Shown here: positions 1,973 to 30,739 of the stretch, piece after piece
Position numbering within the stretch: the stretch's first letter is position 1
How the letters are laid out: every line of letters starts with the position of its first letter
From: a virus
Virus record (IMG/VR): IMGVR_UViG_3300018080_000099
Coordinates: 64,001-128,000 of that record
Length of the DNA stretch: 64,000 nt
Strand: one strand, 5' to 3'
Program-made: the position numbers and the translations under genes
Notes under the pieces: generated by a model
The model's input: only the letters and a program-made list of their open reading frames with translations
Told to the model about the DNA's origin: nothing
Database searches by the model: none

Positions 1973-2001
1973 TTGACATTGCCTGTACCGTGATGTATAT
2001 T
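1973..2001 (+). promoter_or_regulatory. conserved phage promoter, family copy 1 (TTGACA, 17 nt, TATATT)
   Basis: cTTGACAttgcctgtaccgtgatgTATATTAagg, followed by RBS AAGGAG and the ATG at 2031. Confidence 0.7.
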
Positions 2002-2030
2002 AAGGGGTAGAAGTTCATGAAAGGAGCACT

Positions 2031-2534
2031 ATGGCAGCGAAGATTGACGACTTGTATCAGGCGTTGGTTGATGCGAGTCCAAAAGGAGTGTCGGTTGATG
2101 ATTGTTTGGTATATTATGGCACTGACAGAGTTGAAAGGCTCCATCAGGCTATACATTATCTAAGGGTTCATCGTCCCGGTACAATCAAGCAAAGAGTGCA
2201 GGGTGACAAGAAGTATTATGCGATAACCCGTCTACCAGTAGATGATTCTGGTTTCGTGCCTTCGACTCAAGCTCGTAATGATGAAGTAGGCGGGCCTGAG
2301 GAGTCGCAAGAGCAAATCCCACCAAAGCCTGAGCCCGTTGAGAAGCCCTTATATGTACCTGAAGGGCTGGATGGGATTCAGGACCTCATCGGTATAGAAG
2401 GAATGGAAGTTCTTCAGGACATGCCGAAACATGCAATACAGACCATTCGAGACATGATGCCTGTGTATATCAAAGGTACTCAGGCGGCTACAATGATTGC
2501 TAATATGGTTTCATCATATGGAGGCGCAATATGA
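2031..2534 (+). CDS. hypothetical protein
   Basis: 167-aa ORF with consensus promoter and RBS; ATGA overlap with the next ORF. Confidence 0.6.
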   Translation: MAAKIDDLYQALVDASPKGVSVDDCLVYYGTDRVERLHQAIHYLRVHRPGTIKQRVQGDKKYYAITRLPVDDSGFVPSTQARNDEVGGPEESQEQIPPKPEPVEKPLYVPEGLDGIQDLIGIEGMEVLQDMPKHAIQTIRDMMPVYIKGTQAATMIANMVSSYGGAI

Positions 2535-2956
2535 GCAACAAGGTAGAAGAAAGGCGTGAGAAGATACTTTGCGTCTTGAGTCGGGCAGGGCGTCAGTACA
2601 CCTATGCCCGTCAGTTGGCCTCCCGTTATCGGGTTCACATGAATACCATCCTGCAAGATATAAAGGAGCTTCGCAGAGCTGGTATTGGAATCCACACGGG
2701 TCCTTGTGGTGGATATAAGCTTTCGAAGCATTCCACTCAGAGGGAAGATGTAGTTGCCCTTAAGAAGGAAATGGGCATTCGTGTAGGGCAGGACATTCGT
2801 GTGACTGCCATGCAGGGCGAGATGTACAAACGCTTCAAGAATTCTCCGAAGCGACCTCAGATAGAGGCGGCTGTCAAGATGCTTTGTCCTTTGGGAGCCT
2901 TGAAGGTACAGACTCAGATAGCCAATATGGCTCGGAGGATGATAAGGTCTAGGTGA
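2531..2956 (+). CDS. putative winged-helix DNA-binding protein
   Basis: 141 aa; the N-terminal stretch ILCVLSRAGRQYTYARQLASRYRVHMNTILQDIKELRRAGI resembles a DeoR/wHTH fold; translationally coupled to the upstream ORF. Confidence 0.45.
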   Translation: MSNKVEERREKILCVLSRAGRQYTYARQLASRYRVHMNTILQDIKELRRAGIGIHTGPCGGYKLSKHSTQREDVVALKKEMGIRVGQDIRVTAMQGEMYKRFKNSPKRPQIEAAVKMLCPLGALKVQTQIANMARRMIRSR

Positions 2957-3094
2957 AGAGGGGCGTAGTGCGCTGGCGTCTGCCATAGCGCTGGCGCATT
3001 AAGGGTGGCGTGAGGTTGGCTCCTTACCTTGCGTCACCCACCTTTTCAATTGACAAGGTTGACAACACAATCTATTTTATAAAGGAGTTACAGC

Positions 3095-3277
3095 ATGGGC
3101 GCTAACTTTAGCAAAATCAAAAGAGAGTGTTTGGATTGGAGTCGGGTAGATGGCAGATGTTATACTGAAGCCAATGAGACCAACACTCGTGAGCGGGTTG
3201 AGACAGCTGAGGGGACGAGAGTCCTTCGGGTGTATCGGAAGTGTGAGGAGTCCAATTGTCCTTTGATGAGGAAATAA
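3095..3277 (+). CDS. small hypothetical protein
   Basis: 60 aa, RBS AAGGAG 8 nt upstream of the ATG. Confidence 0.4.
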   Translation: MGANFSKIKRECLDWSRVDGRCYTEANETNTRERVETAEGTRVLRVYRKCEESNCPLMRK

Positions 3278-3480
3278 TTGGGATAGGAGCGGAATGGTAC
3301 TGTCCACAAAATTTGACATGTTTGAGCGCGTAGTTATCTCGGAGACTGGGAAGGAAGGAATAGTCGTAGAGATTATAATGCAAGGCTCAGACCTAGTGTA
3401 TAAGGTTCAATTGTGGGATGATTGCGAGCAGAAGTTTTTCAGTTTATACGAATTTGAAATTGAAAAAGGGGAAAAATAAT

Positions 3481-28659: not shown

Positions 28660-29447
28660 AAGAACTAAGATACTGCTTACACAATGCCGATGTCATGGCG
28701 GGCTTTGAGTGTTCTCCTGACGAGAGTGTGGGCTTGATTGTCACGAGTCCTCCGTACAATGTCGGCATTGAGTATGACTCATGGAACGATGTGATGCCAC
28801 GACAGTCATACTTGGCGTGGTGTGAAATGTGGCTTAAAGAATGCTATCGTGTTTTGAAGCCTGACGGCCGAATTGCCATTAACATTCCATTCGAAGCTAA
28901 TATGATTAAAAGTGGTGATGGTCGAGTCATGATTGTATCTGACTACTGGCACATCATGGAGAAAATCGGTTTCAAGCTCTTTGGACTTATCCGATTGGAA
29001 GAAAAACAAGCTGAGCGAAGCAAGTTCACGGCTTGGGGTTCTTACATGTCGCCTTCATGTCCTTACATCTACAATCCCGATGAGTGTGTCATCTTGGCTT
29101 ACAAGGAACTACCGAAGAAAATCACACAGGGAGAAACGGACTTGACAAAGGAAGAGTTCGTAGAGTATGTTAGTGGGGTATGGAAATACAAGGCAGAAAC
29201 CAAGGGACTGACAATGGCGAACTTCAGCCTTGACATCCCGATGAAAGCAATCAAAATTCTGTCATTCAAAAAGGACACTGTGCTTGACCCATTCATGGGA
29301 AGTGGCACAACCGGAGTCGCATGTATGTTGCTTGACAGGTACTTCATTGGATTTGAAATCAGTCCAAGGTACCATGCAATAGCTGAGGACAGAATACAGT
29401 ATGCTGTTGACAGAGGCAATTGTGCCTTAGGGGAGTTGTTCGAATGA
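28656..29447 (+). CDS. DNA methyltransferase, beta-class (second)
   Basis: GLIVTSPPYNVGIEYD; LDPFMGSGTTGVAC. Confidence 0.85.
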   Translation: MKELRYCLHNADVMAGFECSPDESVGLIVTSPPYNVGIEYDSWNDVMPRQSYLAWCEMWLKECYRVLKPDGRIAINIPFEANMIKSGDGRVMIVSDYWHIMEKIGFKLFGLIRLEEKQAERSKFTAWGSYMSPSCPYIYNPDECVILAYKELPKKITQGETDLTKEEFVEYVSGVWKYKAETKGLTMANFSLDIPMKAIKILSFKKDTVLDPFMGSGTTGVACMLLDRYFIGFEISPRYHAIAEDRIQYAVDRGNCALGELFE

Positions 29448-29860
29448 AGCTGTATAGGTATCGTACCAAACATGCTCATGGGGAAAGTTCATGGGCGCTC
29501 GTACACTTTCCGGATGAATCAACGAAAGATGATGTTCGGGAATACTTCATAGAGCTTTCGGAACAATGGAATTGGAGTGATAAGTTCAGAGGAATTGAGT
29601 GGATTGAAGTCAAGAAGATTCCACTTCAGTTCGTTGAGAGGCGTATGACAAGCGTTTCTAACCAGATAAAATCCCTGAAGGAAGAATTGAAGGAGCTTGT
29701 TACTTTCTCGCATTCGTGTGATGTGGCACCTGAAAAGACATGTAAAACCTGTTGCCACCAACCCCGGAAAGATTGCTCATGGAGAAAGGCTTATCATAAA
29801 GAGCTTGGAAATTACTGTGGGAAAAATAAGGAACAGTGGAGGCCCTTATGGAAAGAATGA
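29444..29860 (+). CDS. hypothetical Cys-rich protein downstream of the methyltransferases
   Basis: 139 aa; CKTCCHQPRKDC cluster. Confidence 0.4.
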   Translation: MKLYRYRTKHAHGESSWALVHFPDESTKDDVREYFIELSEQWNWSDKFRGIEWIEVKKIPLQFVERRMTSVSNQIKSLKEELKELVTFSHSCDVAPEKTCKTCCHQPRKDCSWRKAYHKELGNYCGKNKEQWRPLWKE

Positions 29861-30465
29861 TATTTGGTAAGGGTAAAGGCAAAGTCGGTAAGACTCCTGC
29901 TGTGCTTCTGACCAACCCAAAGTACTCACGCAATGTGAGCCAAGCCGTTCGCGCCTGCTCGTGCTTCGGTGTGGAGCAGTGTTGGTTCACTGGCAACCGT
30001 GTTCAGGTTGAATTAGAGAATGCTACAAGGCTCCCACGGGAAGAACGGATGAAAGGGTATAGCTCAGTTGACATCATTCAGTATGATTATCCGTTCGAAC
30101 AGTTTCAGAACGCTACCGTTGTTGGTATAGAGGTTGTAGCTGGTGCAGAGATGATGACCGACTTTGAGCATCCTGATAATGCCTTGTATGTGTTCGGGCC
30201 TGAGGATGGTGGACTCACAAGTATGGTAAAAGGCTTCTGTCATCGTTATGTGTTCATTCCGATGAGGCACTGTTCCAATCTCGCCGCGGCGGTCTACATT
30301 ACTTTGTATGACAGATTCCTTAAGGAGTGTTGGAATGGCAAGACTGAAGCAATCTCAACCGACCAAATGCTTAATGAACCTCGGGGATGGGCGAAGTTTG
30401 AAGATACAGTCTATGGCCCCATTGAAAACCAAAGAGACAAATCAATCGGAGAAATTCTTCCATAA
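29836..30465 (+). CDS. SPOUT (SpoU/TrmH/TrmL-like) RNA 2'-O-methyltransferase
   Basis: VLLTNPKYSRNVSQAVRACSCFG ... YVFGPEDGGL ... IPMRHCSNLAAAVYITLYDR matches the SpoU motif pattern. Confidence 0.65.
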   Translation: MEALMERMIFGKGKGKVGKTPAVLLTNPKYSRNVSQAVRACSCFGVEQCWFTGNRVQVELENATRLPREERMKGYSSVDIIQYDYPFEQFQNATVVGIEVVAGAEMMTDFEHPDNALYVFGPEDGGLTSMVKGFCHRYVFIPMRHCSNLAAAVYITLYDRFLKECWNGKTEAISTDQMLNEPRGWAKFEDTVYGPIENQRDKSIGEILP

Positions 30466-30474
30466 GGAGGCAAG

Positions 30475-30714
30475 ATGCCACATTACAGGAAGCTTCACAT
30501 TAACGGTGCCGAATACGAGTACCATACTGGCAAGACTGGGGTTAAAGTAAAGTTCCCCAATGGTAAGAGTGCTTTCATGCACTATAAGGACATGTACGAT
30601 GTTATTTACAGTGAGGTTAACGGCACCGCTGCTTCTGAAGTGACGCCTGAAGTCATCATCACGAACATCGTTACCAAGTTCGATACGTCGAGCTGGGGTG
30701 GAAGTTTGTCTTGA
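30475..30714 (+). CDS. hypothetical protein
   Basis: 79 aa, RBS AAGGAGG. Confidence 0.45.
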   Translation: MPHYRKLHINGAEYEYHTGKTGVKVKFPNGKSAFMHYKDMYDVIYSEVNGTAASEVTPEVIITNIVTKFDTSSWGGSLS

Positions 30715-30739
30715 CTTTACCTGTCCAATAATGTATATT
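30711..30739 (+). promoter_or_regulatory. conserved phage promoter, family copy 7
   Basis: TTGACTttacctgtccaataatgTATATTAaagg. Confidence 0.65.

Follow-up and report, generated by a model that had tools for sequence, protein, structure and literature searches.

The DNA analysed in this study is a stretch of 64,000 nucleotides, hereafter the window, that covers positions 64,001 to 128,000 of the IMG/VR virus record IMGVR_UViG_3300018080_000099, and the elements of interest are the sigma70-like promoters that stand in front of its genes. A total of 74 kb of sequence was examined, namely the 64-kb window and the 10 kb to its left (contig L007). The source is an uncultured, metagenomic jumbo phage of ~264 kb. 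A 437-amino-acid protein of the window has an identical copy on ~264 kb contigs, and the contig ENA ERZ27256796 k141_2651556 (263,805 bp), from which the gene calls for the promoter sites were taken, is co-linear with the window and circularly permuted. Genes are read from the + strand between ~0.8 and 34 kb and from the - strand from there to 64 kb. Among the products encoded are RtcB, a DUF2828 protein, NadR-like and PnuC-like proteins, several N6/N4 DNA methyltransferases, Cpn10 and Hsp20.

Comparison with deposited phages revealed no close relative of this genome: a megablast of 24 kb of the window against the 50,697 deposited phage genomes of INPHARED gave no match, the best RtcB match among deposited phages is a 735-kb uncultured phage with 44.5% identity, and the DUF2828 protein shares at most 36% identity with proteins of cultured phages. 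The nearest relatives found reach an RtcB identity of at most 78% (P0011, 78%, whose sequence includes no DNA upstream of the gene). A search of IMG/VR for related loci with the NadR-like protein returned nothing. The further contigs of this phage (L008-L010) share 100% identity and hence offer no microdiversity to compare.

The original prediction described seven near-identical promoters at 1973, 10583, 15336, 22122, 25399, 26959 and 30711, with a conserved spacer core and each ahead of a + strand gene block. Our analysis found all seven sites. The -35 hexamer is TTGACA at six of them and TTGACT at 30711, position 25399 being the C that precedes the TTGACA at 25400. The -10 hexamer is TATATT (5/6 against TATAAT) at all seven, and the spacer measures 17 bp, except at 26959, where it is 18 bp. 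Called genes follow every site on the + strand at a distance of 0-150 nt. The pattern TTGACA-N15-20-TATATTA has eight exact matches in the window (655-684(-), 793, 1973, 10583, 15336, 22122, 25400 and 26959) and none in 100 shuffles. The label sigma70-like is borne out by the sequence features, that is, a near-consensus -35 element, the 17-bp spacer, the 5/6 match at -10, UP-like A tracts and a YRY start element 7 nt downstream. Judged by these features, the seven sites are very probably real, strong promoters.

The description of seven near-identical copies with a conserved spacer core holds for five sites (1973, 10583, 15336, 22122 and 30711), which match ACCTGTACC at -27..-19 as listed in Table 1, and fails for 25400 and 26959. 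The chance that at least four of the 37 other promoters reach 7/9 or better in register is 2e-7. With one mismatch or none, ACCTGTACC is not enriched outside these five promoters (13 matches in the window against 9.0 +/- 3.3 expected).

Scanning of the 74 kb for this promoter type recovered the motif and showed that the family extends well beyond seven members. A total of 38 sites were identified with at most one mismatch over the 12 hexamer positions and a spacer of 17 bp (N17), against ~0.3 expected by chance according to our own estimate. A scan of positions 1-40000 yielded twelve 11/12 matches, all of which combine TTGACA with TATATT and eleven of which have a 17-bp spacer; matches of 9/12 were no commoner than in shuffles. 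Beyond the seven sites, full matches occur in the window at 557(-), 684(-), 793, 9864 and 39380(-), and weaker members at 3050, 49554(-), 50958(-), 53978(-) and 59719(-). About 22 further members are located in the 10 kb left of the window, a region crowded with small genes, with one promoter per gene and many back-to-back divergent promoter pairs.

Analysis of the 38 sites revealed conservation at many positions besides the hexamers. TTGACA is the predominant -35 hexamer (34/38), the remaining four being TTGACT. Upstream of it, A occurs at -44 in 33 of the 38 sites, A or T at -42..-40 and C at -36 in 22 sites, and A tracts near -44 and -54 are a feature of the family. In the 5' part of the spacer, A/T at -29, C at -26 and T at -22 are conserved family-wide. 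In the 3' part, A-18 and T-17 are each found in 32/38 and a purine at -16 (R-16) in 37/38; position -13 is G or T in 36/38 and never A. Around the start, A-6, T-1, A+1 (26/38) and a pyrimidine at +2 (Y+2) are preferred. The triplet A-18 T-17 R-16 is also present in promoters of related phages with 31-36% GC. Hence the element written as (A/G)T(A/G)A(G/T)G in the original prediction is the -18..-13 element of the whole family, and the conserved GGTA(Y) past the -10 hexamer is the start element.

Most of these positions have counterparts in the literature on bacterial promoters. R451 of sigma70 senses position -18, where A or T is stimulatory, and T is preferred at -17/-18 (Singh 2011, PMC3130263). 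Strong spacers, both natural and selected, follow a four-region layout of AT, GC, AT and G; a YRY start element centred 7 nt past the -10 hexamer fixes the start site; and the UP region is enriched in C at its 3' end (PMC12641261). The family-wide conserved positions coincide with these published polymerase contacts, so that the 3' half of the spacer needs no additional factor. The claim that conservation of the spacer implies such a factor is thus not supported in the form in which it was made, since A-18, T-17 and R-16 recur in 32-37 of 38 promoters and in related phages.

Clustering of the 38 spacers gave discrete groups. One of them, referred to as class A, consists of exactly the five sites 1973, 10583, 15336, 22122 and 30711, in all of which CCTGT and C-20 are invariant (CCTGTnC, -26..-20). 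Two class-B groups, AnTCAGCTCnAATGATG and TTTGAGCTGAAATGWAT, cover most of the left block, and the site at 25400 clusters with class B. Similarity among the class-A sites runs from -37/-36 to near +1, and the flanks on either side show ~0.3 identity, which is background. The first genes downstream of the class-A promoters are not paralogues, which indicates that the promoters did not spread through gene duplication.

Several spacers appear to be composites or copies. The spacer of 25400 reads aatCAGG + CCATAAGG, joining a class-B-like 5' half to a 3' half of the ATAAGG type, and that at -2673 (negative positions lie in the left extension) reads actCAGCCAG + AATAAGG, a class-B 5' half with an ATAAGG 3' half. 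The promoters at 50958 and 59719 are 100% identical over -36..-7 between unrelated flanks, and ~45 nt at 793 are 100% identical to a promoter copy 4.6 kb leftward, outside the window. The spacer of 30711 differs at 3-5 positions from its class-A paralogues and at 7-8 from its positional orthologues in the related contigs L139 and L138, which keep TTGACT, TATATT and the leaderless ATG at +1 but not the class-A core in register. In another relative, L005, the spacers include a sub-family private to it. Similarity that is higher within a genome than between orthologues of different genomes is the signature of concerted evolution. Together, the sharp boundaries at the promoter edges, the unrelated genes, the mosaics, the identical pair and the closeness of spacers to paralogues point to concerted evolution by promoter-bounded recombination. 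The same similarity pattern could alternatively reflect co-evolution with a lineage-specific factor.

Relatives found with P0002, P0007, P0013 and P0015 are AT-rich (30-35% GC) and without the class-A core. The class-A pattern had no match in IMG/VR and none in 596 Gb of GTDB genomes; among three matches in JGI metagenomes, L005 is the only relative of the phage. For a class-B-like pattern, the matches listed from IMG/VR were single unrelated ones.

On balance, we consider it probable from the features described that the sites are jumbo-phage promoters for the host's primary-sigma (sigma70/sigmaA-type) RNA polymerase and belong to a genome-wide family of near-optimal promoters. Under this interpretation the family features (A tracts, C-36, TTGACA, N17, A-18 T-17 R-16, TATATT and T-1 A+1 Y+2) would be read by the polymerase itself, through the C-terminal domain of its alpha subunit, sigma region 4, the sigma 2/3 linker, sigma region 2 and the start-site pocket. 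CCTGTnC at -26..-20 would be the mark of one spacer sub-family and no general requirement. Recombination or gene conversion among promoter copies may generate the sub-families and keep them homogeneous, in a modular shuffling of the promoter-early stem-loop (PeSL) kind, and the exchange would fall in the spacer segment where the polymerase constrains composition (the GC-enriched middle) and not exact sequence. We infer that the host polymerase uses the sites, that they act early and that recombination, not a dedicated factor, keeps the class-A core; the early regulon of the original prediction is plausible. The promoter set would then be a tidy and fairly ordinary phage feature.

Several points weigh against this interpretation. 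The host-type reading of the promoters is drawn from sequence features, and recombination between repeats of ~35 bp is an assumption. The genomes available for comparison of promoter-associated indels, the defining evidence for PeSL cassettes, are either identical or too distant. Counts for the family and its classes cover 74 of the ~264 kb of the phage genome, and Cpn10, with 34-48% identity to proteins of many phyla, assigns no host. One class-A-like spacer (four mismatches) occurs in L005 ahead of a small-RNA-like transcript, which gives the type some persistence across phages. The invariance of CCTGT and C-20 in five of five sites amid random flanks also fits base-specific selection by a DNA-binding factor.

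That last point is the starting point of the reading, possible though in our judgement doubtful, that the class-A core serves a class-specific DNA-binding regulator, of phage or host origin, as an operator or recognition site. Either a repressor that overlaps the spacer or a Q-like or activator protein docked between -35 and -10 would fit, and could give the 2-31 kb block a timing of its own. The invariant bases stand in fixed register between background flanks and ahead of unrelated genes, and within the 74 kb all five sites fall in that one block, class B being dominant to its left. A candidate protein is also at hand: the second gene after 1973 (ORF, open reading frame, 2531-2956) scores 24.2 bits against HTH_11, for which the cut-off is 25, and has weak matches to NiaR in PDB (E 0.02), and PnuC-like and NadR-like genes of NAD salvage lie in the same block. 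All five class-A sites read ACA-N5-TGT, which also forms the core of the type II operator of Thermotoga NiaR, TTTACAGCAGGTGTAAA, likewise a conserved sequence between -35 and -10 (PMC2330245), and the 557(-) promoter carries a perfect TTGACA-N5-TGTCAA repeat. Against this, the symmetry common to the five sites is limited to 3 bp (ACA/TGT), of which ACA belongs to the -35 hexamer, and the downstream GGTA(Y) is shared with class B and so provides no class-A partner half-site. The core has no excess of copies outside promoters, and other spacer types show the same sub-family pattern, including a 100% identical pair. A NiaR-like regulator is therefore a lead and not a finding, because the arms are 3 bp long, the candidate ORF falls short of the Pfam threshold, is without a homologue among 5.8 billion proteins and gave an unusable single-sequence structure model (predicted local distance difference test, pLDDT, 43.5), and the orthologous promoters of L139 and L138 do not keep the core in register; as a NiaR operator the site is putative by sequence. 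An extension of the same idea, which we hold to be unlikely, treats the 5' half-spacers (CCTGTAC in the 2-31 kb block and CAGCT in the left small-gene block) as address labels read by phage DNA-binding proteins. Such proteins, one candidate being the product of ORF 2531-2956, would bind between the -35 and -10 elements of host-type promoters that are constitutive in other respects. Phage lambda provides known cases of operators within the promoter spacer, OR and OL. If the half-spacers were regulator sites, they would form a compact timing device, setting up temporal classes without a change of sigma specificity in a region reliant on the host polymerase.

A phage sigma factor, or a sigma-appropriation complex of the T4 MotA/AsiA kind, in place of the unmodified host holoenzyme had been suggested for these sites and appears extremely improbable. 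The argument in its favour is the generic one from conserved sequence between the hexamers. Every member has primary-sigma consensus hexamers at optimal spacing with a canonical TTGACA-type -35 intact, whereas MotA-type promoters replace the -35 element and phage-sigma promoters have other hexamers; the host-consensus hexamers thus make this reading unlikely. Precomputed Pfam marks on ~62 kb of gene calls, which leave the 52-64 kb tRNA region and the remaining ~190 kb outside the search, include no sigma-like or AsiA/MotA-like protein. Inverted repeats flanking the -10 hexamer, with arms in the spacer and around +1, offer a further explanation, to which we give very little credence: the arms would pair as a cruciform or hairpin and so make melting easier, or would fold into an RNA hairpin when transcripts read through them. 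When each spacer was paired with its own downstream region, the longest arm averaged 4.29, versus 3.89 in cross-pairs (permutation p = 0.004), a small effect in a test of post hoc design. Eight of the 38 sites have arms of 6 bp or longer, versus ~5% of cross-pairs, and arm sequences differ by promoter (ACCCTA/TAGGGT at 39380, CTGTAC/GTACAG at 15336, CCTTTA/TAAAGG at 9864 and CCCATA/TATGGG at 25400). Against a structural role, 13 of the 38 sites have arms of just 3 bp, loop length (10-35 nt) and dyad centre vary, and a promoter's own transcript does not include the upstream arm. The host-type promoter family remains our preferred reading.

Other candidates for the spacer sequence were considered and rejected. 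Pairing of CCTGTACC with GGTACAGG as a class-A operator was ruled out, as class B too has GGTA(Y) around +1, which fits the start element (PMC12641261). Spacing or position spoke against four known motifs, namely the boxes of LexA, Pho and MotA and the classical TGn extended -10, and an overlapping upstream promoter starting at CTGTAC was ruled out as no -10 element occurs at the required place.

Among known systems, the PeSL cassette of T4-type phages, for which a role as recombination substrate has been proposed, comes closest (Arbiol 2010, PMC2839356; Comeau 2014, PMC4122927); the analogy is functional and does not imply membership. In both cases a near-perfect sigma70 promoter (TTGACA-N17-TATAAT in RB49/phi1) recurs many times between small variable genes, preceded by AT-rich sequence and often accompanied by a conserved Shine-Dalgarno sequence, and homology is restricted to the regulatory cassette. 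The defining upstream stem-loop, however, is clear at one of five class-A sites and in a minority of the family here, and the window phage is unrelated to T4-type phages at the sequence level. Folding of the 70 nt upstream of the class-A sites gave a strong hairpin at 10583 only (z = -4.9); z was above 0 at 15336 and 22122, -1.5 at 30711 and -2.9 at 1973, where no compact terminator hairpin is formed.

The T4 early, T5 and SPO1 host-takeover promoters are dense arrays read by the host holoenzyme, with strong consensus and UP-like A tracts, ahead of small early genes. The promoters described here resemble them in forming dense, strong arrays ahead of small genes with conservation past both hexamers, but differ in having A-18 T-17 R-16 in place of the classical TGn in most members and in their discrete spacer sub-families (CCTGTAC versus CAGCT). 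They likewise share with the polymerase-intrinsic elements A/T at -18/-17, a GC-enriched mid-spacer, C at the 3' end of the UP region and a YRY start 7 nt past the -10 hexamer (PMC3130263, PMC12641261). Those elements, however, are compositional preferences and do not predict an exact 7-mer, CCTGTnC, in five promoters.

These results provide a usable promoter model (TTGACA-N17-TATATT, A-18 T-17 R-16, start 7 nt downstream) for an uncultured ~250-kb phage lineage without a cultured relative, and the model is of help in delimiting operons and in recognising leaderless genes and small RNAs in genomes of this kind. They also advise caution, in that conservation between the hexamers does not by itself amount to an additional factor: the polymerase itself reads some of it, and concerted evolution of the copies may account for some.

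Table 1. Promoters of the family located in the window, with spacer sequences and adjacent features. Match, agreement with ACCTGTACC at -27..-19; ORF, open reading frame.
Position	Strand	Type and elements	Spacer	Match	Adjacent features
1973..2009	+	Class A; TTGACA, TATATT; likely start A2009	ttgCCTGTACCgtgatg	8/9	ORF 2031-2534, then HTH_11-like ORF 2531-2956
10583..10619	+	Class A	atACCTGTACCataagg	9/9	Terminator-like hairpin upstream (GGGGAAGC...GCTTCCCC-TTTT); ORF 10634-10798, then thioredoxin 10795-11184
15336..15371	+	Class A; CTGTAC/GTACAG dyad around -10	ttACCTGTACTataagg	8/9	ORF 15407-15742 and radical-SAM block
22122..22157	+	Class A	taACCTGTACCgtgatg	9/9	Begins 4 nt past stop of upstream ORF; ORF 22201-22662
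30711..30746	+	Class A with TTGACT	ttACCTGTCCAataatg	7/9	Predicted +1 is A of ATG opening a putative leaderless ORF of 31 codons; RtcB (30860-32209) next; positional orthologues in L139, L138
25400..25435	+	Without class-A core; mosaic, 5' class-B-like, 3' like 10583/15336	aatCAGGccCCATAAGG	<5/9; shares just 3' half of spacer	Predicted +1 is A of ATG 25435; leaderless candidate
26959..26995	+	18-bp spacer, without class-A core	tttcccggaaacgtaaat	<=5/9 at any offset; only hexamers in common	ORF 27014-27724 and two DNA methyltransferase genes
793..828	+	Class B2	atgGAGCTGAAATGtat		TATATT-ATTACC-ATG, suggesting leaderless mRNA
649..684	-	Family member			Ahead of conserved ~80-nt non-coding transcript (GTACTGAAACATCT...TTTAAGCGGTTAA)
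522..557	-	-35 and spacer form perfect inverted repeat TTGACA-N5-TGTCAA			ORF 42-500(-)
9864..9899	+	TATATTG; dyad TTCCCTTTA/TAAAGGAA around -10			Between NadR-like and ABC-ATPase-like genes
3050..3085	+	Weaker member (TATTTT)			Preceded by strong terminator-like hairpin
39345..39380	-	Classical TGn extended -10			Past Hsp20; ~890 nt without called gene downstream (38461-39345), then DUF2828 gene; position conserved in L134, L002, L137
50923..50958	-	tRNA-cluster promoter (TGn and TATTTT)			Identical to 59719 (100% over -36..-7)
59684..59719	-	Twin of 50958 promoter			Inside tRNA region
49519..49554	-	Weaker (TATATA)			Within 3' end of 163-codon ORF, ahead of small genes and Cpn10
53943..53978	-	Weaker (TATTTT)			Directly before tRNA-Glu 53872-53945

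In several members an ATG lies exactly at the predicted +1: in the window at 822-830, 25429-25437 and 30740-30748, and in the left extension at -3788, -4935, -9640 and -2673. Two patterns of this type were found, TATATT-ATTACC-ATG and TATATT-nnnGGT-ATG, and the arrangement is kept at the promoter of the RtcB operon in L139 and L138. By their layout, these promoters are likely to give leaderless mRNAs.

Some family members lie ahead of short non-coding repeats. The ~80-nt transcript predicted from 684(-) (window 560-650(-)) contains GTACTGAAACATCT...GGGGAACCAAnGGGGAGCTTGGTC...TTTAAGCGGTTAA and has two copies in L005 (400-500 and 930-1010); it has no Rfam match, and its predicted fold is no better than that of shuffles (z = -1.3). 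At least five promoters of the left block (-693, -2241, -3814, -5519 and -8888; L007 10460-20459) drive a ~50-nt repeat, AACCTcAGGGGTGGGAACGGCGA...TTTAAGCG(G/C)TTAAAC, which is followed by a terminator in four cases (not at -5519); four of the promoters are on the strand opposite the small genes. This repeat is a candidate small-RNA family and has no Rfam match. The near-palindrome TTAAGCGCTTAA, one mismatch allowed, occurs in seven copies against 0.2 expected, all in the early small-gene region (578-589 and 750-761 in the window; -776, -2325, -3897, -5447 and -8971 in the left extension), and is also present upstream of L005 promoters. Its function could be to bind a protein, or it could belong to a conserved segment of the small RNAs.

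Upstream of the 1973 promoter is a 530-bp gap without genes (1440-1970). A tandem pair of perfect DnaA boxes (TTATCCACA), with no other exact copy in the window, lies especially at 1892-1911, ~60 bp upstream of 1973, and several TTGACA/TTGTCAA repeats occur at 1450-1640. The gap may be an origin or a DnaA-controlled region. For the gap downstream of the 39380(-) promoter (38461-39345 (-)), the adjoining DUF2828 gene bears the PHROG label 'RNA-binding protein' and RtcB is nearby, an arrangement that recalls bacterial rsr/Y-RNA/rtcB loci. By this analogy the region might encode a Y-RNA-like RNA; an Rfam search of 38461-39345 gave nothing at E <= 1.

ARAGORN identified 46 tRNA genes in 16.5 kb of the tRNA region (47442-63912, -), mixed with small HNH-like ORFs. 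The 47th tRNA gene of the window (34202-34278, +) has the anticodon CTA, that of an amber suppressor, and is located at the point where transcription converges. TAG ends 9 of the 69 called window genes, and there is thus no obvious recoding.

The tetranucleotide GATC is absent from the 74 kb (window 1-64000 and L007 10501-20459), against ~243 expected per 64 kb, and CTAG (68) and ACGT (106) are also depleted. Related contigs contain GATC 42 (L133), 34 (L137) and 6 (L136) times. The absence of GATC suggests strong selection against a GATC-specific restriction or Dam-linked process in the host. In L137, a syntenic, AT-rich related scaffold, a Cas12f1-like/TnpB gene (12862-13974) that is absent from the window phage is inserted beside Hsp20. 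The window gene at 18199-19212 (+) encodes a 337-amino-acid protein with SBP_bac_3, Lig_chan-Glu_bd and Ion_trans_2 domains, that is, a phage-encoded ligand-gated channel of the glutamate-receptor-like type.

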